Shown here piece after piece: positions 4,616-46,472 of a stretch of 64,000 bases of DNA. How positions within the stretch are numbered: position 1 is the stretch's first letter; every line of letters begins with the position of its first letter. Under the pieces are notes generated by a model. That model saw nothing but the letters and a program-made list of their open reading frames with translations. It was not told the origin of the DNA and made no database searches. The position numbers were made by a program, and so were the translations under genes. Location: assembly GCA_019058315.1 (NCBI GenBank), contig JAHPZH010000003.1, positions 588,451 to 652,450 of the forward strand, written 5' to 3'. The stretch is from Candidatus Helarchaeota archaeon (GTDB lineage Archaea; Asgardarchaeota; Lokiarchaeia; Helarchaeales; RDOG01).

Positions 4616-5938
4616 ATGAAAAAGAAGATAAATCGCATAATTATAAAGAATTTGAACAAGGTTAATGCCAGATATCTTACACCAGATAATAAATGGAATT
4701 TGATAGTTCCCCATCGAAACTTAAAAATCGATAATGATTTTGTAAAAATTAAATTTTCTAAAAAGATGGGTGTAGAATCAATAAACCTTTCTTATCCTTT
4801 TAAGATTAACAAACTTACAGCATATATTTTCGGATTAGTCTTAGGTTCTGCCGTAAAAAGAAAAGACCGGCTAACATTGAACGTGGATCCGCGACAAGTC
4901 CCCAAGCTTCTGAATTTCTGCAGACAGCTTAAAGTTGCCCCAGAATATAAGATAATTAAGAAAAGGTACAAGAACAGGTATAAAAATTTCTATAACAGAA
5001 TTTTTCAAAATGCTGTAGTCCATTTACCTTCACCAGTATACCAATATTTGAAAGCTCTAGGGCTTAATCTATATCAGCCTAAAATACCTTCTTATTTTAC
5101 CCCTAAATTTGACCACTATGTTATTTCGGGGTACCTGAATTCAAAAAAGGCATCTTTAATTCATCATTCAACAACTCCACTTCGCCAATTGATCCTAGTA
5201 AATGCAAAATCAAAACCTTATAAAAGAGATTTTGCCAAATCATTCATGCAACAAATATATCAGGATTTAAAATTCCATTCAATAAAAGCAAATATTAGAA
5301 ATTATAAATATCATTCAATAATAAAGATAAAAAGTCGTTCTATAACACATCTAATAAAGAAATATCATATTAGACGGCCCCAGATCCGTTACAGTGGAAA
5401 ATTCCTCGGTCTATTACATAAATACCCCCATCTCAAGACGACCATAAATCTATATGGACTTACTTCATTTCAACTTTCTGTATTAGAAATTGCGTTTTAT
5501 CACTTTTTTAATCGAAAAAATCGTGAAGTTGAATATACTAGGTTCGAAGAGATGTTTTCATGCAGTTCTAATAGAATTAGAAAATGTCTATATGAATTTC
5601 AAGCAATGGGATTACTACAATATTTTGCAAAGGGTAGAAAAGAATTTGTAAAACCTACTTTTCTATGTTTCAAGTATGCAGAAGACGTTATGAGGGAGAA
5701 ATTAACATCTTTAAAGGATGCTGTCGGTAAGGGAGAGGCATATATTTTTGTCTGTAAAGTTTGTGGAAAAGGTATAGATTACCTATCAGCTATGGAAGGA
5801 GGATCTTTCAGTTGTCCAAATTGTAGGTCAGAGCGACTGGAACAATATTCCGGGGAGAAAATAAAACGAAGCTTGAGTGCATATCACGGACAACTTTCAC
5901 AATTTAGAAATTCGTATGAGGTGATGTGTCGTGCTTAA
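4616..5938 (+). CDS. Degenerate LAGLIDADG-like domain fused to TFE/TFIIE-alpha-like wHTH plus Zn ribbon
   Basis: TAYIFGLVLGS and YVISGYLNS helices; SNRIRKCLYEF wHTH; FVCKVC..YLSAME..FSCPNC..L Zn ribbon as in TFE. Confidence 0.6.
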   Translation: MKKKINRIIIKNLNKVNARYLTPDNKWNLIVPHRNLKIDNDFVKIKFSKKMGVESINLSYPFKINKLTAYIFGLVLGSAVKRKDRLTLNVDPRQVPKLLNFCRQLKVAPEYKIIKKRYKNRYKNFYNRIFQNAVVHLPSPVYQYLKALGLNLYQPKIPSYFTPKFDHYVISGYLNSKKASLIHHSTTPLRQLILVNAKSKPYKRDFAKSFMQQIYQDLKFHSIKANIRNYKYHSIIKIKSRSITHLIKKYHIRRPQIRYSGKFLGLLHKYPHLKTTINLYGLTSFQLSVLEIAFYHFFNRKNREVEYTRFEEMFSCSSNRIRKCLYEFQAMGLLQYFAKGRKEFVKPTFLCFKYAEDVMREKLTSLKDAVGKGEAYIFVCKVCGKGIDYLSAMEGGSFSCPNCRSERLEQYSGEKIKRSLSAYHGQLSQFRNSYEVMCRA

Positions 5939-6410
5939 TATTTTTCAATTAAATAGTATCAAGATTGCTCGATTGAAGAAAGTGAGGAATCTGCTTAACA
6001 GCTCAGAAATTGACAAATTCAAAGATTCCTTTTCAGATCTATTTGGCAAAATTAAATCTGGAAATTATAACGGAAATAAATATTTCATTACAGAGGATGG
6101 AATCGTTTTTGGTTATTATTCAATGGCTCTTGCAGTTCTACAGAATTTCGGAGCACGAAGTGAAATTGTTCTTAAAGATAATCTTTGGCGGATAAAATCA
6201 AATGGAAAATGGTATCTCTTAAGTCAATATTTTGGTTTTTTATCAGAAGATTTATTGAATAAATCCAAAAAAATTCTTCGCCCTGAACGAAAACTGTATC
6301 TTCGATGGCCGTTCGAACAGGAAAAAGACTACATTGTAGTAACGAACGGAAAATATGCAATTATGATTCCACCCGCAAAAATTAACATTATAAGGGATAT
6401 GATTTTGTGA
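5931..6410 (+). CDS. Hypothetical protein
   Basis: GTG start, GAGGTG RBS, overlaps upstream stop. Confidence 0.6.
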   Translation: MLNIFQLNSIKIARLKKVRNLLNSSEIDKFKDSFSDLFGKIKSGNYNGNKYFITEDGIVFGYYSMALAVLQNFGARSEIVLKDNLWRIKSNGKWYLLSQYFGFLSEDLLNKSKKILRPERKLYLRWPFEQEKDYIVVTNGKYAIMIPPAKINIIRDMIL

Positions 6411-6628
6411 GCGATCCTTGTGAATGTAGTGTAGATGGTGTATGTGAATTCGTAATCAAAGATAATGTTAAATATTGTATTCTTTGTGGAAGAGTGGAGG
6501 AGATTATTCCACCGATGTGTGAGATTGTTGGGGAATGTCAATGGATTAATTTTGATAGTGTTGTGCTTTGTGCTCAATGTGGAAGAATAAAACCAAAAAG
6601 TGAAGGGGAAGTAAATGATCCAAAGTGA
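6407..6628 (+). CDS. Small Cys-rich protein with two repeated Zn-finger units
   Basis: CE..x.G.C..CxLCGR unit occurs twice. Confidence 0.65.
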   Translation: MSDPCECSVDGVCEFVIKDNVKYCILCGRVEEIIPPMCEIVGECQWINFDSVVLCAQCGRIKPKSEGEVNDPK

Positions 6629-6818
6629 GCAAAAGATAAAATATAAATCCAATTCTATTACAGAAGAAGTTTTAGTAAAAGGATTTGAGGGAATTCGGTC
6701 GCTTTTATCTGATTGTTTTTCCTTAAATGACACGTTAGGCGATAGTCTCAGTATTCAAGTTTTACATAGTGTCTATAGAATGATAACTAATACGAAAAAA
6801 GAAAGAATCATTAATTGA
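6615..6818 (+). CDS. Hypothetical protein
   Basis: GGGGA RBS; overlaps previous gene. Confidence 0.5.
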   Translation: MIQSEQKIKYKSNSITEEVLVKGFEGIRSLLSDCFSLNDTLGDSLSIQVLHSVYRMITNTKKERIIN

Positions 6819-6833
6819 TTTAGAGGGGAATGC

Positions 6834-7763
6834 ATGGAACAAACAAATTATATCATTTGTACTCATAACGATTTGGACGGTTTTTGCTGCGGTGCGATTT
6901 TATTGAGGCACTATCCTGAAGCAAAAGTCTTTTTCGCTACTCCTAATTCCCTATTCAAAACATTTTACCGAATTAAACATGCCTTGGTTGAAGAAATAAA
7001 GAACCATATGTTCATTTGTGATATAACATTAAATGGAAATACTGTTAATAGAATAAATCAAGCACTCCGCTATATCAGGAATGATTTTCATTTCGATTTT
7101 ACTTGGATAGACCATCATGATTGGCCTTTTGAAGAAAAATCATTGGGAAATTATGAAAAAATTTTAGACCTCACTCAAAAATCCGCCGCTTATTTGGTCC
7201 AGAAATATACAGATCCGGATAAAAATATTGATTTCGTGAACATGGCTGAAGGGATTGGGTCGATTAAAGATTATAAATATTGGAAAGTTGTAATAAGAAA
7301 TGTCTGCAAGACTTCTTTTGTTGATGAAAAGTTAGAACCAGTTTTACGTGCTTTTAGTAGGTTGGAACGAACTCCCGAAAGTGATGAGTTTTACCAAGAA
7401 ATAAAAGAACTTATTAGCGAAGATTTAAAGAAAATGGAAGTATTCAATACCAGAGAAGGGCGTAAATTTTCAGTATTGGATTTAAGGAAGATCCCTTACA
7501 AAGTGCAACTGTATAAAGAGGTCTTTAAGTTATCAACGTTTTATAATTGTGATTTTATTTGTGTGATATTTAAAAACGAAGAATTGTCCTGCTACAACAC
7601 AGATACTGTTTCCTTCAAATTTTTAAAAGATTTTGGGGCTGTGGGGCATTTAGAAAGAGGGGCAGTGCATATTCCAATTCCTTATGAAAAATCTGACACA
7701 TTCGGATTTCAAAGACCCTTGACAATTAAAGAATTCATTGAGGTCTTAAAGAAAAATTTATAG
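6834..7763 (+). CDS. DHH-family phosphoesterase (NrnA/RecJ superfamily)
   Basis: THNDLDG, ICDI, WIDHH, SAA and C-terminal AVGH motifs. Confidence 0.85.
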   Translation: MEQTNYIICTHNDLDGFCCGAILLRHYPEAKVFFATPNSLFKTFYRIKHALVEEIKNHMFICDITLNGNTVNRINQALRYIRNDFHFDFTWIDHHDWPFEEKSLGNYEKILDLTQKSAAYLVQKYTDPDKNIDFVNMAEGIGSIKDYKYWKVVIRNVCKTSFVDEKLEPVLRAFSRLERTPESDEFYQEIKELISEDLKKMEVFNTREGRKFSVLDLRKIPYKVQLYKEVFKLSTFYNCDFICVIFKNEELSCYNTDTVSFKFLKDFGAVGHLERGAVHIPIPYEKSDTFGFQRPLTIKEFIEVLKKNL

Positions 7764-7773
7764 GAGAATGAAA

Positions 7774-8998: not shown

Positions 8999-9976
8999 CT
9001 ATCTGAAGTAATTGTCCATGGTTTGTTGCCTCATCTTAAAGTAGTCAAATGCTTTTTTCAAACGTTCAAGCCCTCTTTCAATGCGTTTTTGAGAAAATTT
9101 TCCATTCAAAAATCCTTTTAATATATGAAAATTTGGATAACGGAAATGGGGACCGAAATTAAATGATGGTGGATTTAGAAATTTTGACCGTAAAATAGTA
9201 AAATCAAATTCTAGTGGTATAAATTCTTCATTTATAGTTTCTAAATCATTGTATTTCTTTATTAATTTCAACGCTTTCTTTGGACCTATGCCTTTCACAC
9301 CTCCTTTATTTAAATCTGTTCCTATTAATAATGCTATATCAACTAATTGTTTATATGTAATCCCAAGATGAGTCAAATTATCCTTTAGTTTTATCAAAGT
9401 TAATGTATCATTTTCAAAATCCAGGTCTTTTATCATATTTTTAGATCCAAATAATAAGACATCATAATCATAAGAAACCACTCCAAAGGCATATTTTTCC
9501 CTCACAATGCGGCATGCTTGTGCTTCACCTTCGGAAGGGGCTCTTACAGCGGGTAATCCCATGAATTTTAAAAATTCAATACATTCAACAATTGCCTTAT
9601 CAAATAGAAAAGCATAATCGTTCAATGCTCTGGAATTATAATTACCATCTTGGATGCTATCGTGGTATTTTTTCCAAAGATATAACAATTTCATATTATG
9701 ATACGTGGGAACCTTCCTTTTTTCCTCCATAGGCATCCCATCGAATACATAGATTGGACGTAATTTTCGTTCCATTAAGTTTATTGTAAAGTAAAAAATT
9801 CCTATCAAGTGAGATATGGGTTCTTTTTGATTTTTTCTTAAATTTTTATCAATATGGGATATTTTAGAAATATATCGCACTAAAAAATTAGTCCCATCAA
9901 CAGCTACAGTCTTTCCTCTAATATCTTCAAATTCAACACTTTCTGTTTTTAAGATCGGTGTTAATTTACATCCCAT
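8999..9976 (-). CDS. fen: Flap endonuclease 1 (FEN1/XPG family), divergent
   Basis: AVDG, YVFDG, PSEGEAQ, SYDYDVLLFG, GTD..GIGPKKAL; C-terminal PIP box QQTMDNYF. Confidence 0.92.
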   Translation of the reverse strand: MGCKLTPILKTESVEFEDIRGKTVAVDGTNFLVRYISKISHIDKNLRKNQKEPISHLIGIFYFTINLMERKLRPIYVFDGMPMEEKRKVPTYHNMKLLYLWKKYHDSIQDGNYNSRALNDYAFLFDKAIVECIEFLKFMGLPAVRAPSEGEAQACRIVREKYAFGVVSYDYDVLLFGSKNMIKDLDFENDTLTLIKLKDNLTHLGITYKQLVDIALLIGTDLNKGGVKGIGPKKALKLIKKYNDLETINEEFIPLEFDFTILRSKFLNPPSFNFGPHFRYPNFHILKGFLNGKFSQKRIERGLERLKKAFDYFKMRQQTMDNYFR

Positions 9977-10565
9977 TAAAATACCCCAATAGATTCTTTT
10001 TTCCTGGTTTCTTCAAAACAATTTCAAAAATCCCGGTTGTTCTATGGAATCCGTTATTCTGTATTAAAAGTGAGTTTAATTTCACATTCAAATAAAGCTG
10101 ATACAAAATTTCCCAATGTGTCCTGGATTGACTTTCCGTTTTTCTAATGAGATTAATCATGTTTTTTATCTCAGAATTGCTTGAAGAATATGCTATCTTT
10201 AATTTATTGACTTTCATCAGACGAATTTTTTTAGGAATATATCCTTCTCGAATTCCAAATCTTTTAGAACGATAATATAACTGCCTTAATTTCTCTTTTT
10301 TACAGAATATTAACTGACAATCGCTTATCTTACCCAAAATTAAATGAAGGAGTCGAAATTCTTCATCAATCCGTTCTATCATGAAGTTCTCTGGGAATGT
10401 TACAGGACGAGGACCTAATTTTTCAATTTCGCTGGTAATAAATTTAGTCTCATTTCCGTTATGATATACAAGATAATGTATCGAATCGCCATAGTTCTGT
10501 TTCTTTAACTTGGGATCTTCGCTTTTACCAATTTCAAAATCAAAAAATAATTGATTTATCATCAA
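9966..10565 (-). CDS. Degenerate family-B polymerase exonuclease-like protein
   Basis: FFDFE (ExoI-like), EEFRLL..I, LYYRSKRFGI; ExoII/III absent; PIP-like KNLLGYF end. Confidence 0.45.
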   Translation of the reverse strand: MMINQLFFDFEIGKSEDPKLKKQNYGDSIHYLVYHNGNETKFITSEIEKLGPRPVTFPENFMIERIDEEFRLLHLILGKISDCQLIFCKKEKLRQLYYRSKRFGIREGYIPKKIRLMKVNKLKIAYSSSNSEIKNMINLIRKTESQSRTHWEILYQLYLNVKLNSLLIQNNGFHRTTGIFEIVLKKPGKKNLLGYFNGM

Positions 10566-10678
10566 TTTTCACCGAAAGAAAGAACGTATTGGAGTGAATT
10601 TATAAGGTTTTCCCTCATCCAGAATTTTTGTCGGATATTCAAATAGATCTTTAAAGAAATCGAAATTTGTTTATACAA

Positions 10679-12286
10679 TTAGCTTTCAAATCCTCTTTCA
10701 CGTAATTGTCTTCGAAAGTCGTCTTCCGAAATTTCACCTTTCATTTTGGAATATTCAAGCAACTTTTGAACTCCTAATTCTGTAATTTTATAGGTGTTTC
10801 TTCTGGTCACTCCGAGGACTTCTTGACTCTGAATCAAAAAACGTAATTGTATGAGTTTATGGAGTAATACTCGCAAGACTTCATCCTCGATACCCGTAGC
10901 TGATTGAATTGAGCCATACATGATTTCATCGTATTCAGTAGCGATAGATAGAATGTTCTTAACATGTTCTGCATATTGATGGAAACTTCTTTCAATCGCA
11001 CTTCTTTCTGGGACAAATATAGGACCGAAATCCCAATCCGGATAAAACATTTTTAATCGCTCTTGAATTTCCTCGTCTTTTAGAACATGCGTTTCATCAA
11101 AATTCAGATAATCAAACATTATAGGAAAACAACTTTTTACATCGGGTCGATTAAGCAGGGCTTCACCTTCTTCCATAACTCGTAGATATTCATACTGATA
11201 TTGATATTTTCGTTTTTCAGAATAGGTCTCCGTGGTTCCCTCTTCTCGTGGTCGAAAGCTCAAATTCAATAAGGAACGTAATGCTTGGCTTTCTTCAAAA
11301 GAATGAGTTCTATGGACTATTATATTGAGAAAATTCGATAATATTTGTGGAATTATTAAAGAAGGATATTGAATCGAAGTGTGTATGCCAATATCATTAC
11401 GTCGTAATGTGCTCATCCAATTAAGCAGCGAGAAGTGAGGATCATCGTTTCTTCCAATATATAATTTCGGCTGTTCCATTCCAAAGATTAAATCTCCATC
11501 ATCTATTAGTATCATAAAATCTCTATAATTAAGAAATTTGGATAGTGTGATTATTTTGATCAATATTAGAAAAATCAAAAACCTGCGACTTCTCTTATCA
11601 TTTACATCAATTTCTATTAATGCAGGAGCATCTGATACAATTTCATAAATATTTTTCTTTGTATTAGCGATCATTCTTGTCGTTTCCCCGCTTAATAAAT
11701 TATCAATATATTTATAGACGGCATTAAATTCATTTCTTTCCTTATAGCTTATTTCAGGAGCCATAACTCCGTTCCAAAGCTCATCTGTAAAACTATTCAT
11801 TGCAGGACTATTACCATACATTTCATAGACATTTTTTAACATAGTCGAGATCGCAGCTACTATCTCATCACTGAAATTTACTGACAATCGTAACATTTCA
11901 ATAAAAAAGGGGATATAATTTTCAGCAGGTACCCCTTCAGTATCAAGTGGTCCGATAGAAATATCCTCTCCAAGACGAAATATCTTCATAGTAGGGATGA
12001 AGTCTGCAAGTCTTCGATAATTTTTATTGGAAGATATTATTATATAGGGGATATTTTTTTTCACAGATTCATAGACTATCTTGGCATTTGTTAAAAATCG
12101 TTCGAGTATGTTACTTCCAACTACGATAACTCCATTTCTCATATCATCTTCCCGTAGCCCGATGGGAAGTTCTTCATGTAAAAATTCAGTTTCTATTGTA
12201 TTTCCTAATGGACCTATCTCACTTTCTAAATTTGTAGGAACAATAAATTCCACCGGATATTGGTATGGCATCGATTTTACAGCCAT
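10679..12286 (-). CDS. HerA/VirB4/CedB-type ATPase domain with degenerate Walker A/B and C-terminal wHTH; probable C-terminal part of a frameshift fusion
   Basis: PIGL..D..GVIVVGS(NILERF), ILIDDGD, LRR.DIG..SIQYPS...LSN...IVHR. Confidence 0.75.
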   Translation of the reverse strand: MAVKSMPYQYPVEFIVPTNLESEIGPLGNTIETEFLHEELPIGLREDDMRNGVIVVGSNILERFLTNAKIVYESVKKNIPYIIISSNKNYRRLADFIPTMKIFRLGEDISIGPLDTEGVPAENYIPFFIEMLRLSVNFSDEIVAAISTMLKNVYEMYGNSPAMNSFTDELWNGVMAPEISYKERNEFNAVYKYIDNLLSGETTRMIANTKKNIYEIVSDAPALIEIDVNDKRSRRFLIFLILIKIITLSKFLNYRDFMILIDDGDLIFGMEQPKLYIGRNDDPHFSLLNWMSTLRRNDIGIHTSIQYPSLIIPQILSNFLNIIVHRTHSFEESQALRSLLNLSFRPREEGTTETYSEKRKYQYQYEYLRVMEEGEALLNRPDVKSCFPIMFDYLNFDETHVLKDEEIQERLKMFYPDWDFGPIFVPERSAIERSFHQYAEHVKNILSIATEYDEIMYGSIQSATGIEDEVLRVLLHKLIQLRFLIQSQEVLGVTRRNTYKITELGVQKLLEYSKMKGEISEDDFRRQLRERGFES

Positions 12287-12293
12287 CTTAGGA

Positions 12294-12337
12294 GCCTGGA
12301 GAAGATGATTGATCCCCTCCAGGCCTGTTAGAAAAAA
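12294..12337 (-). other. Candidate -1 programmed ribosomal frameshift signal
   Basis: T TTT TTC immediately before TAA, 6-nt spacer, hairpin GCCTGGAGGGGAT-caatc-ATCTTCTCCAGGC; the -1 frame is open into the ATPase ORF. Confidence 0.7.
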
Positions 12338-13233
12338 CGAAACTTCCCGCCGTCTGTTATCTGGACTCGTTTGGCAGCTAATAAATCCTTATCTTCAAGA
12401 AGTACTAATTTTGAATGTGGAAAATTGACCAGAAATGAGGATTCCAGCTTTTGAAGATTCAATTTCACATTTTCATAGACCTCTTGGATCGTTTCTGCTA
12501 CATTTGTCCCAATTTTTCTATTATCGGATGTCCCAAACACAATCCGTGCTTCCCAAACACCTTCCCTGTTTAAAAGAAATGAATTTAAACCATCTCCACC
12601 TAATGAATCCATAAATTTGCGCATATCTAACGTGACATTTTTCAAGCGTTTAACCTCTTTTTCATTAATTGGTGCTTGGACGTAATTCCAGAAGATAGGT
12701 ATTTTTTGACCGTAAATTGAGCGTATGAAATCATTGAATTTTCCGCTGATACTTATTGGTATTGTATCAATCTTAAAAAGCCCAAATGCCGCTATACGTC
12801 CCCGACTCTCAAAAAATAAGACATCTTTATGTAATTCTCCCGTATCCTTATCTCTATAGAAAAAACATTGTATATCATTCATGAAATCCACTGTTTCTAT
12901 AGCTGCTTTTGAAAGACTTGAAAATGCCCCCCTTATCCTGTAGGATATTTGAGGTTGTAGAAGTATTGAAAGTCCTGAAAAAACCACTATAGCAATTAGT
13001 GCTGATACAATCATATCTTGGATGAATGAAGTACATATTACCCATATGGATAAGGAAATTATCAATGTCCCTATCATTATAAATAAAATTCTTGATAAAC
13101 TAGGATGAATTATGCGATCTCCCGACCAGAAGTGTTGCGAACTCCTTAATTCTTCAGTTCTGCGTCTGTAAGCTTCATTTCTGCTTCGATTATTTCTATT
13201 ATAGATATTTCTATCATAACTTTCATCTAACAT
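12328..13233 (-). CDS. Two-TM membrane protein, N-terminal part of the VirB4/CedB-like fusion
   Basis: Two hydrophobic helices then a soluble domain; ATG at 13233 follows AGGTGA/AAGGA. Confidence 0.7.
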   Translation of the reverse strand: MLDESYDRNIYNRNNRSRNEAYRRRTEELRSSQHFWSGDRIIHPSLSRILFIMIGTLIISLSIWVICTSFIQDMIVSALIAIVVFSGLSILLQPQISYRIRGAFSSLSKAAIETVDFMNDIQCFFYRDKDTGELHKDVLFFESRGRIAAFGLFKIDTIPISISGKFNDFIRSIYGQKIPIFWNYVQAPINEKEVKRLKNVTLDMRKFMDSLGGDGLNSFLLNREGVWEARIVFGTSDNRKIGTNVAETIQEVYENVKLNLQKLESSFLVNFPHSKLVLLEDKDLLAAKRVQITDGGKFRFF

Positions 13234-13238
13234 TCCTT

Positions 13239-13718
13239 TCACCTTTTGAAAACGTAAATTACACCTATGATTATATAATAAATAAAATAGGGCAAGAGAG
13301 ACCAATTATTACCCCAATTTGCAGGGTCCAAAAAATTTTCAACTATAAAGAAGATTGTGATTCCAAACCAGACCAAAGCCCAACCAAATGCAGCTTTCTG
13401 CCACGCATTTAGATCTACATCGGGATCATCTTGTATGTTTTTAGTGTGTCCAATCGCACCACCCCTTACCATATACATTGTTTCCGATATATTCCTTGCT
13501 TTTTCTAACAAAATTCGATTTCGCAAGTCTCTTTGTGTGTCCCTGACAGAATCTTTAATATTTTTTGTCACCATTTCTTCCGAAAACTGGTTAAATATTT
13601 TTCCAGAATCCTTTCCCTTGAATAAAAACGACTTTATAGCAAAAAAACTGATGATGGCTGCAAGTAATAAGGGCCATTGTGTTATGAATTCCAGATATCC
13701 TAAACTCATTCGTGTCAC
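13239..13718 (-). CDS. Three-TM membrane protein
   Basis: Hydrophobic segments; in operon with the ATPase. Confidence 0.7.
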   Translation of the reverse strand: MTRMSLGYLEFITQWPLLLAAIISFFAIKSFLFKGKDSGKIFNQFSEEMVTKNIKDSVRDTQRDLRNRILLEKARNISETMYMVRGGAIGHTKNIQDDPDVDLNAWQKAAFGWALVWFGITIFFIVENFLDPANWGNNWSLLPYFIYYIIIGVIYVFKR

Positions 13719-13734
13719 CTACATTAATTTTAAC

Positions 13735-14085: not shown

Positions 14086-14150
14086 TTTTTCACTTTCTTC
14101 TTTTTGATTTTTTGAAAGATTCTGGTGGTATTAACTATTTAAAAAGATGA

Positions 14151-14558: not shown

Positions 14559-14624
14559 TTTACAATCAGACTTATAAAGTCACTATAATGCTTTTTAAAA
14601 CTTATGTAAAAAAGGTGAATTTTC

Positions 14625-38542: not shown

Positions 38543-38587
38543 TTTCTCATATTTTCTTAGATTAATTAATTTATCATTTGGAATTTT

Positions 38588-40482: not shown

Positions 40483-42243
40483 ATGTCACAAATAAATAAT
40501 TCAAAATCCTCATTAAGCATACCAAATACGAAAACCATTCATTTTCTTAAAGCTGCCAATTCCTATGTTTTAAATGAAAATTTTAAAAAAGGCCAGACAA
40601 CCACACTTCCCACAAAGATAGCAAACTACTTCCTAGCAAATAAAATTGCGGAAGAAGTCATTGAAAAAAAAGTAAGAACTGACTATGAAAGAATCAAAGA
40701 TAAATTGGAAGATAAAGAAGAAGAAAATAACGAAAAACCAAGATATGTCCGACATCCTCTAATTATTGAAAACACAATTGAAGCAAGACTATACCAAGAG
40801 GTCAGTTTTGCTGAAACAGTCAAGAAAAATTCCCTTGTAATTTTACCTACAGGACTAGGCAAGACAATAATTGCCGTCTTAAGTTCAGTTTATTGGCTAT
40901 CTCAAGATAAAACCAATAAAGTAATCATGTTTGCACCCACTAGACCGTTATTGGACCAGCATTTTGAAAATTTTTCTAAGTGGCTTAATTTGATGGATAA
41001 TGAAATTGTCCAGATCACAGGAAAAACATACAAAAAAAAGCGAGCTAAAATGTTTGAGAATGCCAGAATGATATTTATGACCCCCCAAATTACCCTTGAC
41101 GATTTCGATTTAAAAGATGTGGCTTTAATGATTTTTGACGAGTGTCATCGAGCTGTAAGGAGATATAGATATGTCAGTAACGCTGAAAAATATTTTATCG
41201 AGGCAACCAATCCCCATATTCTCGGATTGACTGCAACACCTGGCACACCAAAGAAGATTCTAAGTGTCATGCGAAACCTAAAAATAAATAAAGTTAGTCT
41301 GGCCAATGAGGAAACAGACACTGTAAAACCATACACTCATCAAATATACGAGGATTATGTAAGAATTACACTCCCTCCAGAATTAATGAAACTTCGTAAC
41401 TTCATTAACAATTCGCTAAAACGGAAATTGTCTATTTTAAGCCATCATCCACTTGTCAAAAAATATGTGGAAGATAAATACAGAATCAATCCCCACGATC
41501 TTTCACGGATTGTAAAGATGCATATGGGAACCATGGTTTCAGTTAAACCTATTTTGATGCAGGTACTTAGTCTTACCTATTTATTGAATCTTGTCGAAGC
41601 TCAATCCATAAGAGCTTTGGAAAATAAGTTGATCGATCTGCAAGGGTCTAGAAATCCAATTTATCAAGAGATAAATTCCATATTGACTGACTTAAGAAGA
41701 AAAAATATAGAACATCCTAAACCTAAAATAGCATCAAATATTGTCCAAAATTACTGCAAAAACCATGAAGATTCAAGAGTTCTAGTCTTTGTTCAATATC
41801 TGGATAGTGTTGATATTGTCTTGGAGGAATTACAGGAAAAAGGACTAAAAGTAAATAAATTAGTCGGACAAAAGACCATGAGTCAGGATTTACAAAGAGA
41901 AATATTGGAAAAATTTAGAAATGGAGAGTTCCAAGTGCTAGTAGCAACCTCGGTAGCAGAAGAAGGATTGGATATAGCACAATGTGACCTAGTGGTTTTT
42001 TATGATTGTATACCCTCAGGTATTCGAACAGTTCAAAGGCGAGGTAGGACCGGGAGACGTCGTGCTGGGATGTTAATTTATCTTTATACAGAAGGTACTT
42101 GGGAGGAAAGTTTTATTTATATATCAAGAAAGCGGATTAAAGAGACAAATCATATTTTAAAGCTCATGGAACGACAGGACGATCCGCTAGATTTTTTAAG
42201 GGAGTATTTACATTCAAAAAATAAGAAAATGAATTCGTATTAA
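40483..42243 (+). CDS. hef: Hef/FANCM-like DEAH helicase with N-terminal GINS B-like domain and no ERCC4 nuclease
   Basis: ARLYQ, LPTGLGKT, DECHRA, GLTATPG, HPK, ATSVAEEGLDI, QRRGRTGR. Confidence 0.88.
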   Translation: MSQINNSKSSLSIPNTKTIHFLKAANSYVLNENFKKGQTTTLPTKIANYFLANKIAEEVIEKKVRTDYERIKDKLEDKEEENNEKPRYVRHPLIIENTIEARLYQEVSFAETVKKNSLVILPTGLGKTIIAVLSSVYWLSQDKTNKVIMFAPTRPLLDQHFENFSKWLNLMDNEIVQITGKTYKKKRAKMFENARMIFMTPQITLDDFDLKDVALMIFDECHRAVRRYRYVSNAEKYFIEATNPHILGLTATPGTPKKILSVMRNLKINKVSLANEETDTVKPYTHQIYEDYVRITLPPELMKLRNFINNSLKRKLSILSHHPLVKKYVEDKYRINPHDLSRIVKMHMGTMVSVKPILMQVLSLTYLLNLVEAQSIRALENKLIDLQGSRNPIYQEINSILTDLRRKNIEHPKPKIASNIVQNYCKNHEDSRVLVFVQYLDSVDIVLEELQEKGLKVNKLVGQKTMSQDLQREILEKFRNGEFQVLVATSVAEEGLDIAQCDLVVFYDCIPSGIRTVQRRGRTGRRRAGMLIYLYTEGTWEESFIYISRKRIKETNHILKLMERQDDPLDFLREYLHSKNKKMNSY

Positions 42244-42357
42244 TTTACGTTGATAATATAGTTATCAGTATTTGCTACATAACAAAATTTCAAATTTCGA
42301 TGGTGAAAATTAAAGTAGAAATCATGAAAGACAAATTTTAAATCTTATATCTTTCAG

Positions 42358-42894
42358 ATGGTTTTACTAAAGGGTGATTGTAGAATGAAGGATTTAAAAC
42401 CAGAACGAAAAATTCAAGTTTATACGGGTGTAGTAGCTCTATTTGGTGGAATTTTTTTTACTATTGTAGGATTGGACTATCGAATATCTCCATGGAATAT
42501 ATTTCATACATACATAACAGAACCTCCTTGGCTATTATTGGGGTTAATTTATTTGTATTTTGGGTGTGTTGAAATAATTCAGTACCAATATATAAAATCT
42601 CACTATCTGCAATATCCTAGTAATGATCTATGTGATCTATGCGGTGAACATGTAGAAAAGATAAATATAAGAGGGTATTCAGGGTTCAGACTTATATTAT
42701 GCAAAAAATGTCATAAGAAAGTCTTAACGATTAATGGAATAGGTTTAGAGATCTTATTTCTTATGTTAATTCTATTACTCTTTTTTATATACCCCAGACT
42801 TGCTGATTCGTATAAAATAATTGGATTTTATATGTTTCTTGGCATTGCAGTCGGGATTCCTCCAATCATTATTTTTCTAATTCGAAGATATTAA
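42358..42894 (+). CDS. Membrane protein with internal Zn finger
   Basis: Four TMs; CDLC..CKKC. Confidence 0.65.
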   Translation: MVLLKGDCRMKDLKPERKIQVYTGVVALFGGIFFTIVGLDYRISPWNIFHTYITEPPWLLLGLIYLYFGCVEIIQYQYIKSHYLQYPSNDLCDLCGEHVEKINIRGYSGFRLILCKKCHKKVLTINGIGLEILFLMLILLLFFIYPRLADSYKIIGFYMFLGIAVGIPPIIIFLIRRY

Positions 42895-43189
42895 GCTTTT
42901 AAATTTTTATTTTATCGAAAAATCATAAATGCTTAAAAATCTATAACATTGTTTTAATTCAAATTAATAGTTAAAGACATTTAATTTGATTTTATTTTTT
43001 ATTACTTCTTTATTCCTATATTGTTTATAAGAATACCAAATTTATAAATTTATCTTATATTAATTAATCCCTCCTGTCTATATGGCAAGTTACTAGCTCT
43101 ACACCCAGTTTTGAATTTTTTACAAGAATAATATTTATAAAGGATTCATCATGCTTGGCTATTTTAAAATTTTTTTAGGAGTAAAAACC

Positions 43190-44233
43190 ATGAGTTTCGC
43201 GAAAAAATTTGATTTAGAATTAGATGATCTTCCGAGCATGACACCTCGAATTTCCAAGATATTAAAGCAAAATAGAATAACTTCCGTATCAACATTAGCT
43301 GCAACTAGCCTAAGGGAGCTGGTGGGACTTTATATTGACAGTGATACCGCTCAGACACTAATTGATGAGGCAGACGCAACAATGAGGCAAAGTGGATTTG
43401 GTTTTGTAATGGGATCAAAACTGTTAGATGAAGTTGATCAAGTTGAAGTTTTAACCACAGGTTGTAAAAGCCTAGACGTACTTTTAGGTGGAGGATTAGA
43501 CACCCAAAGATTATATGAATTTTATGGTCCCAATGGTGTCGGAAAGACTAATTTTCTTCATCAACTCATATGCACAGCCATGTTACCAAAAAGTAAAGGA
43601 GGTTTAGCCTCACGGGTGGTCTATATTGATGCAGAAGGTAATTTTAGCACCAAGCGAATTAGGATGATAGCCCCTGAATTCGATCTGAACGTTAATCAAG
43701 TGATAAAAAATATCCCTTTAATAAAGATCCACAACATAAGCGAGCTATTAAGCACATTAGAACATCATTTATATCCCGAAATGGAACAAACTGGAGCAAG
43801 GGTAGTTCTATTAGACAGTATAACCTATAATGTCCGTGGGGAATATATAGGAGAAAAAAATTTGCCTATCAGACAAGGAACACTTGGCAAAATAGCTCAT
43901 GCATTGAAAAAAGCATCACAAGCATTCAATGCAGTTGTAGTTGTGGTAAATCAAATAACGAAAAACCCCAAGACTGATGAAGTGACCTATTCTGGTGGCA
44001 ATGTTCTTGGACATGCAGTACAAGTGAGAGTTTCTATGACCAAGGCAGAAAAAGAGAGTAATGACTTGTATAAAAAAGATAGTACATCTCATAAAATACG
44101 GTTTTTTGTAGATAAAGCTGTCGATTTGCCAAGACAATCTTGTATCGTAATGATGGACAGTAGGGGTTTTCGGGATATTGAACCAGGATCCCAAGATGCT
44201 CAGGAAGAAGTAAAAGCAAAACAAGAGGTATAA
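43190..44233 (+). CDS. radA: RadA/Rad51-family paralog
   Basis: LTTGCKSLDVLLGGG, GPNGVGKT, YIDAEGNF, LLDS, NQ, GGNVLGH; ATG at 43190 follows AGGAG. Confidence 0.88.
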   Translation: MSFAKKFDLELDDLPSMTPRISKILKQNRITSVSTLAATSLRELVGLYIDSDTAQTLIDEADATMRQSGFGFVMGSKLLDEVDQVEVLTTGCKSLDVLLGGGLDTQRLYEFYGPNGVGKTNFLHQLICTAMLPKSKGGLASRVVYIDAEGNFSTKRIRMIAPEFDLNVNQVIKNIPLIKIHNISELLSTLEHHLYPEMEQTGARVVLLDSITYNVRGEYIGEKNLPIRQGTLGKIAHALKKASQAFNAVVVVVNQITKNPKTDEVTYSGGNVLGHAVQVRVSMTKAEKESNDLYKKDSTSHKIRFFVDKAVDLPRQSCIVMMDSRGFRDIEPGSQDAQEEVKAKQEV

Positions 44234-44262
44234 ATAATTTTTTAAAAATAAATGGTGGAGAA

Positions 44263-45744
44263 ATGTCACTAGTATCTTTTTTTAAAAAAGCAAAACAGCT
44301 ATCGGAAAACCTCAATTCTTGGGACCGGAAGTCAAAAGTCATGATTATCGGCCATAGGGATGGGGATGGTATAGCTGCTACTACAGTATTAAATCAGGGT
44401 CTAAAACACCTAGGTTTTGAAAAAATCATACCTCAAATATTGTTAAGCCCCGATATAGATCTTCTGATTTCTATGATAAAAAATAATAGTCCAAAATATG
44501 TTATTACATGCGATATTGGTGCAGAATTTGCACCAACTCTGGAAAAAAGAGTTAAGGATTTCATCATAACCGATCATCATCCTAAAAAAATCAGTAACTA
44601 TGGAGCGAAACAGCTGAATTGTATCGAATTTGGACTTGATGATGAAATTGACGCTTCAGGATCAACGACTGCACTATCTCTATTAACCAACTTATTTGAT
44701 GATACTTTTTGGGATTCAGATAAGGGAAAAGTAATCCTAGCATTCGCTGTAGCTGGAGCAATATCTGATTTTCAGTTTCAAAAAGGCATCCATAAAGTCA
44801 ATGGTGTCATTTTAAACAAAGCAAAAATTCACAGTGCAGTAGTTGTGTCAAAAGATATTTCGATTTTTGGTCGAAGTATGTATCCTGCATATATTGCAAT
44901 AAATCGAGCGAGTATTCCTGGACTAACAGATTATTATTTTTGCAGAGATATCATTAATGCGAGTATAGATCCAAGGATAGGAAGTTATTGGAAGCGTATT
45001 ATTGATCTAGATCAAGAGGAAAAGAAAAATATAATTGACATCATAATTTCCCAATTATCAGAGTTTTCCCATAAGATTAACATTAAAGAATTCCTAGCAA
45101 AAGAAGTTATAGGGGATGTATTTGATCTCATAGCTCTTTATGGATGGGATTGCACGTTAATTCGTGATGGTAGGGCAACCTTTGATCCAAGAGAAATACT
45201 ACATCAGGTAAATTATTGCTGCCGATTAGGTCACTGGGATATAGCTTTGGATTTATTAAACCATAAAATGGTATCAGATCACACAATGAAGACGATTTCT
45301 GAATTTCATAGACAAGGAGATCAAGAGGTTGCAGAAGCATTAAAAGCCTATCAAAATAACCTCATCGAACTCCAATCAGATTGTGATGGAAAGGTACTAC
45401 TAGCAGATTTCACTGACCTTATTTTTTATGACGAAGTTGGAGTTATCGCAGGAGTGATTATGAAGCAAGATCGTGACATAGACATCATGCTCTCCTCATG
45501 TCGAATGGAAAATAATGGGTTATACAAGGTCAGCGTTCGTGCCAGAAGCAATGTATGGGAAATGGTCGATTCTGATAATGAATTTGCAGATGCTAAGAAA
45601 GTATATGAAAAGACTAAAATAGAGACCGGCAGCGAAATTAAATATGGAGGACATAGATTTGCAATGTCGGGGTATTTACCTAAAGAAACTATTCCTATTT
45701 TGTTTAAAAATATGGTAACTTATTATAAAAAATTAATAAATTAA
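44263..45744 (+). CDS. RecJ/GAN/Cdc45-like DHH nuclease
   Basis: HRDGDG, CDIG, TDHH, SGS, AGAISD, KVSVR, GGHRFA. Confidence 0.88.
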   Translation: MSLVSFFKKAKQLSENLNSWDRKSKVMIIGHRDGDGIAATTVLNQGLKHLGFEKIIPQILLSPDIDLLISMIKNNSPKYVITCDIGAEFAPTLEKRVKDFIITDHHPKKISNYGAKQLNCIEFGLDDEIDASGSTTALSLLTNLFDDTFWDSDKGKVILAFAVAGAISDFQFQKGIHKVNGVILNKAKIHSAVVVSKDISIFGRSMYPAYIAINRASIPGLTDYYFCRDIINASIDPRIGSYWKRIIDLDQEEKKNIIDIIISQLSEFSHKINIKEFLAKEVIGDVFDLIALYGWDCTLIRDGRATFDPREILHQVNYCCRLGHWDIALDLLNHKMVSDHTMKTISEFHRQGDQEVAEALKAYQNNLIELQSDCDGKVLLADFTDLIFYDEVGVIAGVIMKQDRDIDIMLSSCRMENNGLYKVSVRARSNVWEMVDSDNEFADAKKVYEKTKIETGSEIKYGGHRFAMSGYLPKETIPILFKNMVTYYKKLIN

Positions 45745-45758
45745 GGGAGTGAAAATTT

Positions 45759-46472
45759 ATGCAAAACGTAAAAATTAATGACCTAGAATCTGGTGACAAG
45801 GGGTTTAATATCAAAGTCAAGGTTCTAAAAAAGACCACAGACCGGGTTGTGACTATAAAAAAGACCGGAATGCAAAACAGGGTTGCGAACTTCGTTGTCG
45901 CGGATGACACGGGTCAGTTAAACTTAACTGTATGGGGAGTTGAGATCGATAAAATCCCTATCGATAAGACCATCTCTATTCAAAAAAGTTATGTAAGTGA
46001 GTTTAATGGTAGGCTTTCTTTAAATATTGGAAAATATAGTGAATGGAAAGCATCTAAGGATGAAATAACAATAAAAGATACTCCAAAATCACCAGAACCT
46101 ATGGTAAAATCACATGTTAAAATTTGTAGTGCTCCAGCTAAAAAGAAAGGGATTAACTTGGATAAAGTAAAAGTCCTCGAAATATCCAATATCAGATCAG
46201 TCAAAGTTAAGCGTGACGGTTCTGAACATGAGGTAGCTGATGCACTACTGGGAGACGATACTGGTTGTATAAAATGTTCCTTATGGGATGAGGATATCCG
46301 AAAAATTAAGGAGGATATGATTCTAAGGATTTTTAACGCGTATATTTCAGAATTTCGTAACATTCCACAATTAAATTTGAGCCGATTCAGTAAATATGAA
46401 ATCTTAGAGCCAGAAGATCTTGAAGTGGACTTGGAAAATAATTTATCTCTTAAGGAAAAAGCACAAACATAG
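45759..46472 (+). CDS. rpa: RPA/SSB with two OB folds
   Basis: Two VA..vGD(D/E)TG..L(T/S)(V/L)W OB units. Confidence 0.88.
   Translation: MQNVKINDLESGDKGFNIKVKVLKKTTDRVVTIKKTGMQNRVANFVVADDTGQLNLTVWGVEIDKIPIDKTISIQKSYVSEFNGRLSLNIGKYSEWKASKDEITIKDTPKSPEPMVKSHVKICSAPAKKKGINLDKVKVLEISNIRSVKVKRDGSEHEVADALLGDDTGCIKCSLWDEDIRKIKEDMILRIFNAYISEFRNIPQLNLSRFSKYEILEPEDLEVDLENNLSLKEKAQT

Follow-up and report, generated by a model that had tools for sequence, protein, structure and literature searches.

The genome of a Helarchaeota archaeon (Asgard) carries paralogs of FEN1, Hel308, RadB, RadA and XPD in operons with membrane proteins, at about 4.6-37.2 kb of the window (the whole 64-kb stretch of DNA that was analysed). 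The locus raises the question of whether these genes work together on DNA at the cell membrane, and if so, to what end. The first-pass annotation had proposed a co-regulated, Ced-like machine for cell-to-cell DNA transfer, built as a single toolkit of ~42 kb. Judged from its genes, the cluster pairs spare, divergent recombination enzymes with membrane proteins and an apparently ATP-dead relative of VirB4. No published description of this cluster was found in the literature.

Content of the cluster

The features are listed in Table 1. Membrane and DNA-processing genes do share operons, and every gene pair that the first-pass annotation had named was found in place. The proposed co-regulation is not shown: no promoter word common to the cluster genes was found, and no RNA run was found to contain this DNA. 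The labels "RNase/longin" and "pilin-like" could be confirmed for no gene.

Table 1. Features of the cluster and of the adjoining block, in window coordinates.
Feature	Coordinates	Strand	Remarks
440-aa protein, no family assigned	4616..5938	+	Orthologs in G002 (beside FEN) and L028
309-aa protein, DHH-like N-terminal motif (HNDLDG)	6834..7763	+	No Pfam match
FEN1 paralog, divergent	8999..9976	-	Pfam XPG_I/XPG_N
199-aa protein, between VirB4-like gene and FEN	9966..10565	-	No family match; same-position orthologs in L027, L028
VirB4 C-terminal-domain homolog, 535 aa	10679..12286	-	No Walker A; C-terminal winged helix weakly predicted
Candidate -1 frameshift signal between VirB4 halves	12285..12340	-	Slippery site and hairpin
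TM hairpin and VirB4 N-domain-like protein, 325 aa	12328..13305	-	Upstream half of split VirB4 homolog
Three small membrane proteins heading VirB4-like operon	13239..14558	-	159 aa/3 TM, 116 aa/2 TM, 135 aa/1 TM (TM prediction)
Hel308/Ski2-like helicase paralog, divergent	14625..16859	+	Pfam DEAD/Helicase_C
158-aa protein, 4 TM and C-terminal zinc ribbon	17028..17504	-	End of RadB operon
574-aa membrane protein, 5 predicted TM and large soluble domain	17692..19416	-	Coupled translationally to RadB-like
RadB-like RecA-family ATPase	19410..20123	-	Walker A intact
RadA1, divergent RadA paralog	21191..22363	+	HhH and Rad51 domain, Walker A kept
253-aa exported/anchored protein	22366..23127	+	2 nt past radA1; signal-like N-terminal helix, C-terminal TM
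827-aa surface protein, N- and C-terminal TM	27094..29577	+	Orthologs in G001 and G002 clusters
1334-aa protein, upstream of GTPase	30129..34133	+	No Pfam, PDB or atlas match
Gtr1/RagA-type small GTPase	34140..35204	+	Pfam PF04670, E 1.6e-14; 32 nt upstream of XPD
XPD/Rad3 paralog	35237..37210	+	Pfam DEAD_2/HBB/Helicase_C_2
Hef helicase, 4-TM protein, RadA2, DHH (RecJ/GAN-like) protein, SSB	40483..46472	+	Pfam and NCBIfam

Recombination and repair paralogs

The genome has at least nine RadA-family genes, and many of its other repair genes are duplicated too. The NCBIfam scores of the cluster paralogs are below those of other genome copies for FEN, Hel308, Hef, XPD and RadA. By this sequence measure, the repair genes of the cluster are extra, divergent copies. 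Higher-scoring FEN, Hel308, Hef and XPD and three higher-scoring RadA do exist elsewhere in the genome.

The FEN paralog has a TIGR03674 score of 250 bits (cut-off 352), whereas the copy at C5:534906 reaches 464 bits. The alignment shows that the paralog retains the acidic residues needed for catalysis and, at its C-terminus, a PIP-like motif. This PCNA-binding-like motif fits replication-coupled repair equally with recombination of imported DNA. The Hel308-like paralog matches the Hel308 model only over residues 10-474, with a score of 340 bits versus 836 bits for the copy at C6:130270. The RadB-like ATPase scores 107 bits with TIGR02237 (cut-off 172). In a midpoint-rooted tree, drawn as an open fork, it belongs to a group of 11 cluster-linked RadB-like proteins that is separate from the genome's other RadB (UFBoot/SH-aLRT 94/96). 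The NF003301 scores are 219 bits for RadA1 (cut-off 259) and 194 for RadA2, versus 477, 459 and 403 for three other genome copies; RadA1 lies within a Helarchaeales-wide clade (support 99/94). The XPD paralog has a TIGR00604 score of 333 bits versus 382 bits for the C5 copy, and its Walker A (GKT), DESH motif and four candidate Fe-S cysteines are all present. Walker A is also retained in the RadA, RadB and Hel308 paralogs. From their motifs, the FEN, XPD, RadA, RadB and Hel308 paralogs look active.

A paralog of the 309-aa protein is fused to a RadA paralog in a 651-aa ORF (C1:380162-382117): the N-terminal half of this ORF shares 42% identity with the 309-aa protein, and the C-terminal half is RadA-like. 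The 440-aa protein has no match in Pfam, PHROGs, PADLOC or PDB sequences.

The VirB4-like pair

The minus-strand operon at 8999-14558 encodes three small TM proteins, a split VirB4-like pair, the 199-aa protein and FEN. The Hel308-like gene begins 66 nt from this operon and is transcribed divergently. In the AF2 model of the 535-aa protein, residues 39-317 best match VirB4 (4ag5_A, VIA Z 19.3, 256 aa, rmsd 3.6), followed by DndH-C (18.3), HerA (14.7) and TrwB (14.5). Its language-model neighbours are in DUF87/HerA/VirB4/CedB clusters. For the model of the 325-aa protein (pLDDT 82.5), the sole match with a Z of at least 8 is the N-terminal domain of TrwK/VirB4 (7o42_A, Z 8.1), which aligns with residues 139-325, and the top Foldseek matches are TrwK/VirB4 in 8 of 8 cases. 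The resemblance of this predicted domain to its VirB4 counterpart is weak. In these models the membrane-linked pair folds like VirB4. The VirB4-like gene of the first-pass annotation is a real homolog, one that is split in two here and has no Walker A.

The orthologs in G002, f10 and f29 unite the two halves in a single ORF, which is 784-825 aa long and has TM segments at its N-terminus. A candidate frameshift signal would fuse both halves here as well. It consists of U UUU UUC in phase ahead of the stop codon and, beyond a spacer of 6 nt, a hairpin of 14 bp (-23.9 kcal/mol, z -4.9). The -1 frame at the junction codes for a linker resembling that in the fused orthologs.

The P-loop position reads GSNILER in the 535-aa protein and GG[ST]xx[ED]R in its relatives. 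Walker A is absent in all 11 aligned VirB4-like orthologs and in 108 of the 112 long members of the family, and the acidic pair of Walker B is not maintained either. Since Walker A is missing, the VirB4 homolog is unlikely to be a motor. It cannot fill the role of translocation motor that is ascribed to CedB/TedB. The winged helix of the 535-aa protein is a sub-threshold Pfam HTH_34 match, located where the model has low confidence.

This family-wide loss of ATPase motifs suits a scaffold more than a pump. A rather unlikely alternative is membrane-tethered repair or chromosome resolution with no DNA transfer, in which a dead protein of the VirB4/FtsK superfamily would anchor chromosomal DNA or stalled forks while the paralog set would restart forks, resolve joints or repair breaks at the membrane. 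The layout of TM segments, RecA-like core and possible C-terminal winged helix is FtsK-like, and the weak HTH_34 match and the PIP-like motif kept by the FEN paralog are consistent with such a role. However, the best fold match of both halves is VirB4 and not FtsK, and the co-encoded exported and surface proteins (827 aa, 253 aa and small 2-TM) would not be needed for purely internal repair.

The C-terminal domain of DndH, from a defence system, fits the fold of the 535-aa protein nearly as well as VirB4 does (Z 18.3). As the second-best fold match, and together with HerA-Sir2 and HerA-DUF defence complexes at Z 12.7-13.5, it would fit defence against viruses or plasmids, with a membrane-anchored HerA/DndH-like sensor, a Hachiman-type Hel308-like helicase and nucleases acting on incoming DNA. 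The Hel308 paralog also matches PADLOC HamB models (E 1.8e-44), but this match is generic because HamB is itself a Hel308 relative. None of the eight tested proteins without a known family matches a PADLOC model, and RadA, RadB and XPD paralogs are atypical as defence parts. Defence islands spread patchily, whereas here gene order is kept from one family to the next and RadA and RadB sequences cluster by family in their trees. A defence role seems improbable.

Linkage across Asgard genomes

The expectation of conserved synteny holds at the order level and in the other families sampled. Six other Asgard families share with Helarchaeales (G001, G002, G004, G006 and two metagenome contigs) the linkage of the VirB4-like, Hel308, RadA, RadB (with its 5-TM partner), XPD and FEN paralogs. 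In 11 genomes from these six families, chosen from the VirB4-like match list blind to gene neighbours, the Hel308 paralog is inside the fetched 20-40 kb around the VirB4-like gene in 10. In 16 contigs the VirB4-like gene has a full-length Hel308-like ortholog as its neighbour. Of the 18 contig sets that were examined in all, 15 contain RadA/RadB-family genes, 10 contain FEN and 9 contain XPD. Thorarchaeota-type genomes have all components in a single 15-gene same-strand array. The cluster-linked RadA of five distant genomes scores 253-342 bits versus 473-501 bits for the separate RadA.

Since the linkage recurs in other genomes, the clustering is beyond chance. The number of duplicated repair genes in this genome, the 40.5-46.5 kb block that is unlinked in three relatives, and the interruption of the span by unrelated metabolic genes might suggest that lineage-specific duplicates came to lie next to membrane genes that are unrelated to them and do not work with them. 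The synteny in relatives disfavours such incidental clustering, as the same six gene families stay linked in the sampled genomes despite rearrangement and form one array in Thorarchaeota. This explanation is very improbable.

An equally slight chance is given to a mobile element, conjugative or otherwise, that integrated here with its own recombination genes, or to what is left of one. The combination of a VirB4 homolog and small membrane proteins is the hallmark of conjugative elements, and the genome is large and paralog-rich (5.8 Mb versus 3.5-4.7 Mb in relatives). Conjugation, however, requires an active VirB4, and the ATPase here appears dead. In agreement with the first-pass annotation, no integrase, relaxase or capsid family was found among the region's ORFs in Pfam and PHROGs searches. 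No replication initiator was found in the region and no tRNA gene in the window, the GC content of the region is the same as that of the genome, and the flanking contexts of the cluster vary across the phylum; the family-wise grouping of its RadA and RadB also speaks against such an element. The spread looks vertical, with a match in 49 of 90 high-quality Asgard genomes and no mobile-element genes seen nearby, which agrees with membrane-tethered repair.

Membrane, surface and GTPase genes

The start of the 574-aa protein and the RadB-like gene overlap by 7 nt. Orthologs of the 574-aa protein are downstream of the RadB-like gene in G001, L027 and G065, and a weak profile match relates this protein to the 5-TM partner in Thorarchaeota (hhalign 84%, E 8e-6). 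A multi-TM protein (4-5 segments) also immediately follows the RadB-like gene in f1, f10, f12 and f22. A TM protein of the same size as the 253-aa protein follows RadA1 in G002, G004 and G006 (hhalign 92%, E 6e-7). Orthologs of the three small membrane proteins keep their order in L027 and L028, and do so in part in G001 and G002. Between Asgard orders, the accessory membrane proteins have no recognisable conservation.

The plus-strand run encodes the 827-aa surface protein, small 2-TM proteins, the 1334-aa protein, the Gtr1/RagA-type GTPase and XPD, in that order. In G001 the position of the 1334-aa protein is taken by a 1354-aa ORF. The Rag GTPase switch of the first-pass annotation is retained in so far as a Gtr1/RagA-type gene does lie upstream of XPD; the adjacency is present in one relative (G001) and absent from the XPD contigs of G002, G004 and G006.

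Proposed role of the module

It is somewhat probable that the module acts on DNA at the membrane. The reading that we favour, with a little less than even confidence, is that the core is the Helarchaeales version of an Asgard module by which a second, divergent complement of enzymes for recombination and repair is tied to the membrane, with DNA uptake or exchange with recombination as its likeliest role. DNA import or exchange specifically, which is argued by analogy, is doubtful when taken as a claim of its own. The enzymes would be the RadA, XPD and FEN1 paralogs, the RadB-like ATPase and the Hel308-like helicase. The link to the membrane would be made by the anchored VirB4 homolog without ATPase motifs, by the polytopic RadB-like partner and by the further small membrane and surface proteins. 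The dead VirB4 may serve as a membrane dock rather than a motor, perhaps holding DNA via its weakly predicted winged helix. The helicases would then provide ATP-driven DNA movement, RadA and RadB would load onto the resulting single strand, and FEN would trim flaps following strand exchange. Uptake or cell-to-cell exchange of DNA would in this way be coupled directly to homologous recombination, as in a Ced/Ted-like system.

Ced/Ted is a domesticated T4SS that imports DNA, and Ted loci additionally carry Rad50 and HerA genes (PMC9905601). No homolog of a VirB6/CedA-like channel or a VirB2/CedA1-like pilin was identified in the cluster, nor was a coupling protein, relaxase, pilus gene or active translocase. 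Thus, of the Ced-like transfer machine first proposed, the VirB4 fold and the linkage stand, while the function goes beyond the evidence. Three findings had been named in advance as counting against the proposal (sole copies branching as ordinary orthologs, unconserved linkage and unrelated folds), and none of them was made.

The 40.5-46.5 kb block

The single toolkit of ~42 kb is reduced to the 4.6-37.2 kb core. The 40.5-46.5 kb block consists of extra repair paralogs that are unlinked in the three relatives checked. Its Hef scores 444 bits versus 651 and 617 for other genome copies, and its DHH protein and SSB are 65% and 74% identical to other copies in the same genome. The relatives carry only one DHH gene, and its flanks, fetched for three of them, contain nothing that matches RadA, SSB or Hef. 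Between the core and this block, two genes at 37373-40093 belong to the CCG/FAD-oxidase genes, a multi-copy metabolic family.

Gene content and setting

In many Asgard genomes a complete second set of enzymes (RadA, RadB, Hel308, XPD and FEN paralogs) is kept as one linked module, tied to the membrane through an apparent secretion-system relic. The example analyzed here lies in a genome of 5.79 Mb in 12 contigs (~30% GC) from an uncultured organism, where the window is C11:588451-652450, and the GC content of the region is the same as that of the rest of the genome. Genes were called from the ORF listing and Pfam, and their membrane partners from hydropathy analysis.

Features of the window, with the basis on which each was called
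Feature	Position	Strand	Basis
440-aa protein	4616-5938	+	
309-aa protein	6834-7763	+	
LRR protein	8114-8872	-	
FEN/XPG nuclease	8999-9976	-	ORF listing, Pfam
199-aa protein	9966-10565	-	
535-aa protein (VirB4-like C-half)	10679-12286	-	
325-aa protein (VirB4-like N-half)	12328-13305	-	
Small 2-TM protein, 116 aa	13735-14085		topology prediction
Hel308/Ski2-type helicase	14625-16859	+	ORF listing, Pfam
574-aa protein	17692-19416	-	hydropathy analysis
RadB-like ATPase	19410-20123	-	ORF listing, Pfam
RadA (RadA1)	21191-22363	+	ORF listing, Pfam
253-aa protein	22366-23127	+	
827-aa surface protein	27094-29577	+	
Small 2-TM protein, 87 aa (79-aa ORF next)	29598-29861		topology prediction
1334-aa protein	30129-34133	+	
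Gtr1/RagA-type GTPase	34140-35204	+	ORF listing, Pfam
XPD	35237-37210	+	ORF listing, Pfam
CCG/4Fe-4S protein and FAD-linked oxidase	37373-40093	-	
Hef helicase	40483-42243	+	ORF listing, Pfam
Second RadA (RadA2)	43151-44233	+	ORF listing, Pfam
DHH/RecJ-like protein	44263-45744	+	ORF listing, Pfam
SSB	45759-46472	+	ORF listing, Pfam
100-aa protein	46626-46928	-	
613-aa surface protein	47047-48888	-	
Second SSB	51375-52091	+	
Ras-family GTPase	52785-53687	-	
PCI/winged-helix proteins (n=2)			ORF listing, Pfam

The first-pass annotation had described membrane and DNA-processing genes that share operons, and the ORF listing, Pfam and hydropathy analysis agree with it. The RadB-like gene overlaps the gene for the 574-aa membrane protein by 7 nt, so the coupling stands, but five TM segments are predicted here rather than six. 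The gene for the 253-aa exported or anchored protein starts 2 nt beyond RadA1, as had been claimed. The run ending in XPD contains the 827-aa surface protein, small 2-TM proteins, the 1334-aa protein and the GTPase, much as described before; the Rag-XPD adjacency, however, recurs in only one relative (G001, Helarchaeales). Hel308 is indeed divergent from the operon of the VirB4-like protein, which consists of three small TM proteins, the 325-aa 2-TM protein, the 535-aa and 199-aa proteins and FEN.

Among the intergenic regions of the cluster, no 11-mer occurs in more than two. The word TGTG-N20-TCCAA occurs three times (2808-2836 and 2926-2954 on the minus strand, 4394-4422 on the plus strand) where 0.38 copies are expected, a count reached in 2 of 100 shuffles. 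All three copies are left of the cluster, upstream of a 395-aa GNAT-domain gene and the 440-aa gene, and none is at a repair-operon promoter. The sequencing runs listed for 9000-18999 are sediment metagenome DNA only, with no RNA run.

Divergent copies of repair enzymes

Whole-genome tblastn and NCBIfam scores were used to compare the copies. The earlier proposal could have failed if these were the only copies in the genome, but higher-scoring RadA, FEN, Hel308, Hef and XPD genes are present elsewhere.

Profile scores (bits) of repair-enzyme copies in the window and elsewhere in the genome
Enzyme	Profile	Window	Elsewhere	Cut-off
RadA	NF003301	219 (RadA1), 194 (RadA2)	477, 459, 403	259
RadA	TIGR02236	203 (RadA1), 177 (RadA2)		361
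FEN	TIGR03674	250	464 (contig C5)	352
Hel308	PRK02362	340 (helicase core only)	836 (contig C6)	887
Hef	PRK13766	444	651, 617	610
XPD	TIGR00604	333	382	247

Both RadA genes fall below the equivalog cut-offs that the three other RadA genes exceed, and both contain the Rad51 Pfam domain, an HhH domain and Walker A. The Hel308 paralog matches only over residues 4-490 (308-340 bits against cut-offs of 887-1200 for NF040935/PRK02362), without a match to the C-terminal ratchet and HLH, while the C6 copy matches over its full length. XPD is above its cut-off and has the GKT and DESH motifs and cysteines 111, 130, 139 and 175. Walker A is also kept in the RadB-like and Hel308 proteins, and the acidic residues of the window FEN line up with their counterparts in the higher-scoring copy. 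Judged by these motifs, the enzymes of the window still appear capable of catalysis. The module accounts for the "duplicate" repair genes seen by annotation pipelines in these genomes.

In an alignment, the C-terminal QQTMDNYF of the FEN paralog falls on the PIP-box-like QKSLDKWF of the copy with the higher score; therefore, the divergent FEN may still bind PCNA. A eukaryote-like affinity of the Hel308 paralog was considered, and scores of 256 (ASCC3), 254 (Brr2) and 250 bits (archaeal Hjm) allow no conclusion.

At least nine genes of the RadA family with an HhH-type region at the N-terminus occur in this genome, and three exceed the RadA equivalog cut-off. Seven RadA-family loci (L001-L007) are at C3:1276985, C2:281941, C3:655655, C7:18668, C1:380162, C11:760892 and C2:13843, and two more pairs of RadA-like and SSB genes are at C11:760191-761944 and C2:13127-14796. 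For the 309-aa protein, which carries a DHH-like motif (HNDLDG), a paralog with 42% identity forms part of a 651-aa ORF (L005, C1:380162-382114), where it is joined to a RadA paralog. Such a fusion suggests that the two are functionally linked.

A probable split VirB4 homolog

No Pfam family reaches the threshold for the 535-aa protein. A language model places it next to DUF87/HerA/VirB4/CedB clusters (0.91-0.97), and its AlphaFold model is confident for residues ~50-310 only. Residues 39-317 match the VirB4 C-terminal domain 4ag5_A (VIA Z 19.3 over 256 aa, rmsd 3.6; Foldseek E 1.5e-8), so the modelled protein has a RecA-like C-terminal domain with the VirB4 fold. The other fold matches are DndH-C (Z 18.3, nearly tied with VirB4), DotL (15.3), HerA (14.7) and TrwB (14.5). 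The DndH-like fold and a HamB-like helicase would both suit a rival reading of the cluster as a defence system; PHROGs and PADLOC searches with the unknown proteins gave generic helicase matches only.

The 325-aa protein, modelled from a 42-sequence alignment (pLDDT 82.5), has a TM hairpin of two helices upstream of a soluble domain. Residues 139-325 match residues 15-335 of TrwK at Z 8.1, the sole match with Z of at least 8 (the next is 7.2), and the top eight Foldseek matches are all TrwK/VirB4 with weak E-values of 2e-3 to 3e-2. The proposed likeness of this membrane-linked pair to Ced/VirB proteins is strong in structure for the C-domain and weak for the N-domain. Both halves form one ORF of 784-825 aa with N-terminal TM segments in a Helarchaeales relative (G002) and in two other Asgard families (f10 and f29), and in family f4 they are within proteins of ~1300 aa. 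Since the halves are joined in these genomes, the 325-aa and 535-aa proteins appear to be a split VirB4 homolog with the N-terminal TM hairpin at the VirB3 position. The split into two genes is found in Helarchaeales and four other families sampled.

None of the aligned orthologs of the VirB4-like protein (5 close, 10 distant) has Walker A. At the P-loop position the window protein has GSNILER and relatives have GG[ST]xx[ED]R, and the Walker B acidic pair varies among orthologs. In the wider family, 108 of the 112 long members have no Walker A match, and just one of the four that do is VirB4/HerA-like (GTTGSGKT). The family is small: a set of 1.84 billion proteins yields 270 representatives (E <= 1e-3), and its members are annotated, where at all, as 'hypothetical protein'. 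An additional C-terminal region has a weak winged-helix match. A search of the family profile against PDB sequences gave nothing useful.

The junction of the two genes (12285-12340, minus strand) has the features of a textbook -1 frameshift signal: the sequence U UUU UUC stands in phase ahead of the stop that ends the 325-aa gene, and a 6-nt spacer and a 14-bp hairpin (-23.9 kcal/mol, z -4.9) come next. The -1 frame runs into the 535-aa gene through the linker GLEGINHLLQAPK, which resembles the linker of fused or extended orthologs (alignment A1). Given the slippery site, the hairpin and this linker, a programmed -1 frameshift could restore a full-length VirB4-like protein of ~870 aa.

Conservation of the linkage

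Orthologs of RadA1 (43-49% identity) are confined to its own family and order, and RadA1 belongs to a Helarchaeales clade (99/94). G001 carries FEN, the VirB4 N-half-like gene, Hel308, 574-like, RadB-like, RadA1, 827-like, Rag and XPD genes. G002 has the fused VirB4-like, 827-like, 440-like, FEN, Hel308, XPD, RadA1 and RadB-like genes, two further relatives (G004 and G006) have part of the gene set only, and the same operon is on two metagenome contigs.

Of the 301 Asgard genomes sampled, 121 have a match to the VirB4-like profile, as do 49 of the 90 high-quality ones. Surroundings of 20-40 kb were fetched for 11 of these matches in six other families, chosen blind to their neighbours, and 10 of the 11 contain the Hel308 paralog. 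These Hel308 paralogs match the window copy over its full length and better than they match the canonical Hel308 of the genome. Across 18 contig sets, RadA/RadB-family genes are found in 15, FEN in 10 and XPD in 9. Family f10, with one member labelled Thorarchaeota, has all parts in a 15-gene same-strand array (RadA, XPD, VirB4-like, Hel308, RadB-like, a 5-TM protein and FEN, with small proteins between), and the order RadA, XPD, VirB4-like, Hel308 is kept in f29. The RadA linked to the cluster reaches 253-342 bits in five distant genomes, and a separate RadA there reaches 473-501. The cluster-linked RadB-like proteins form a group apart from the other RadB of this genome (94/96, midpoint-rooted tree). 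The synteny asked for by the first-pass annotation thus recurs in Helarchaeales and six other families, with paralogs that score apart from canonical copies.

The accessory membrane proteins differ between Asgard orders. A multi-TM protein (4-5 segments) directly follows the RadB-like gene in families f1, f10, f12 and f22, and the 574-aa protein has a weak profile match to the Thorarchaeota 5-TM partner (73-84%, E 8e-6 at 84%). Profile-profile comparison of Helarchaeales and Thorarchaeota accessory proteins gave weak links only, namely this pair and a zinc-ribbon-like stretch. Complex prediction for the RadB-like and 574-aa proteins scored 0.00, which speaks neither for nor against binding.

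This recurrence bears on two rival explanations. Incidental clustering is disfavoured, since the synteny recurs and looks vertical. The same pattern disfavours a mobile-element remnant, for which hallmarks were also sought: the ORFs searched with Pfam and PHROGs include no integrase, relaxase or capsid family, as the first reading of the sequence had stated, and no replication initiator family, and the window has no tRNA gene.

Comparison with known systems

The DNA importers Ced (Sulfolobales) and Ted (Thermoproteales) are domesticated forms of type IV secretion systems (T4SS) and serve recombinational repair; CedB and TedB are described as the ATPases powering import, and Ted loci carry Rad50 and HerA genes (PMC9905601). 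Like the module, they have a chromosomal, non-mobile VirB4-family protein and small 2-TM proteins, with recombination or repair genes nearby and no relaxase. Unlike CedB and TedB, the VirB4-like protein of the module has no Walker A and no conserved Walker B. Ced and Ted also have a VirB6/CedA-like channel and a VirB2/CedA1-like pilin, for which the module has topology candidates only. Candidates for a VirB6/CedA/TedA-like channel, a polytopic protein of 6-7 TM segments, are the 574-aa 5-TM partner of RadB-like and a 223-aa 5-TM protein; the 116-aa, 87-aa and 79-aa small 2-TM proteins are candidates, by topology alone, for a VirB2/CedA1/TedC-like pilin. Searches of the 1334-, 309- and 440-aa proteins against PDB sequences gave nothing useful, and the 574- and 1334-aa proteins had no usable match in a language-model atlas. 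The module's own RadA, RadB, Hel308, XPD and FEN paralogs are absent from Ced and Ted, which occur in Thermoproteota rather than Asgard archaea.

Bacterial VirB3-VirB4 (TrwM-TrwK of R388; Thermoanaerobacter pseudethanolicus VirB4, 4ag5) shares the domain order of TM hairpin, N-terminal domain and RecA-like C-terminal domain, and the fused VirB4-like proteins (~785-825 aa) are near the length of the solved TrwK/VirB4 chains (783-937 residues). The VirB4-like family differs in the GG[ST]xx[ED]R-type stretch in place of a P-loop, the extra C-terminal region and the split genes, and no other subunits of a bacterial T4SS were recognised in the module.

FtsK/SpoIIIE belongs to the same HerA/FtsK superfamily and has a similar layout, with an N-terminal membrane anchor, a RecA-like core, a possible C-terminal winged helix and a connection with recombination, FtsK gamma being an activator of XerCD. 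FtsK pumps actively, whereas the VirB4-like family is without ATPase motifs, and FtsK chains are absent among the fold matches listed for the VirB4-like protein. The layout shared with FtsK and the PIP-like motif of the FEN paralog favour a rival reading in which the module serves membrane-tethered repair or chromosome resolution. Even so, such a use of a catalytically dead VirB4 would be undescribed.

Full-text literature searches found no description of the module. Publications asking whether Asgard archaea had a second, specialised recombination system have considered only RadA. The nearest report, in its available part, describes two RadA clades in Asgard archaea, the second in several classes, and concludes that the Rad51/Dmc1 split is later (PMC12722695). 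That text treats RadA alone, with no genomic context or link to membrane proteins, VirB4-like, Hel308, XPD or FEN described. The second clade may correspond to the cluster-linked RadA paralog.

Possible function of the module

A second set of enzymes for strand exchange, unwinding and flap removal stays with a membrane-anchored VirB4 relic, a membrane partner of RadB-like and exported proteins. We infer a machine for DNA processing at the membrane. Since the VirB4 homolog is without the usual ATP-hydrolysis motifs, it is taken as a probable dock or scaffold rather than a motor. Its C-terminal region might hold DNA, and movement of the DNA would then be left to the helicases, whose families are known to unwind in opposite polarities (Hel308 3'-5', XPD 5'-3').

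Import or exchange of DNA is the leading reading, because the closest working model is Ced/Ted; the analogy consists only of a single homologous component and the genomic surroundings. The dedicated machine for cell-cell DNA transfer and recombination proposed in the first-pass annotation is partly supported, by the extra paralogs, the VirB4 fold and the conserved linkage; the lack of ATPase motifs in the VirB4-like protein speaks against it. We regard the module as an undescribed form of T4SS-derived DNA-handling system with a putative role. Should DNA exchange be correct, Asgard archaea would have their first described DNA-transfer system, and with it a concrete, testable link from prokaryotic gene exchange to the origin of meiotic recombination.

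A more far-reaching version, which we consider unlikely, is a vertically inherited Asgard DNA-exchange apparatus, with a T4SS-derived dock and its own recombinase, RadB-like mediator, Hel308- and XPD-like helicases and flap nuclease, as a forerunner of the 'sexual' recombination toolkit in the lineage leading to eukaryotes. The dock would be the dead VirB4 with its surface and membrane partners, and the RadA paralog would be specialised for incoming DNA and functionally Dmc1-like.

Genes outside the conserved module

The ~42 kb described as one system holds together for the VirB4-like, Hel308, RadA, RadB, XPD and FEN genes but not for its right-hand part. The relatives carry a single DHH gene, and the flanks fetched for three of them have no RadA, SSB or Hef match. 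The window DHH and SSB have twins elsewhere in the genome (65% and 74% identical, respectively). Therefore, 40.5-46.5 kb looks like a lineage-specific duplicate set. The CCG/FAD-oxidase genes to its left are from a multi-copy family unrelated to the module. They are a GlcF/GlcD-like pair that interrupts the cluster, with copies at C11:541856-546191 (77% and 63% identical).

The second SSB is 5 kb downstream of the first and is the 74% identical copy. The Ras-family GTPase beside it has a weak, below-cut-off C-terminal zinc-ribbon match. Several neighbouring genes are also from expanded families: the 613-aa surface protein has ~140 tblastn matches in the genome, many of them 55-63% identical on C11, the LRR protein has 149 matches, and the 100-aa protein has 23, with tandem arrays on C5.
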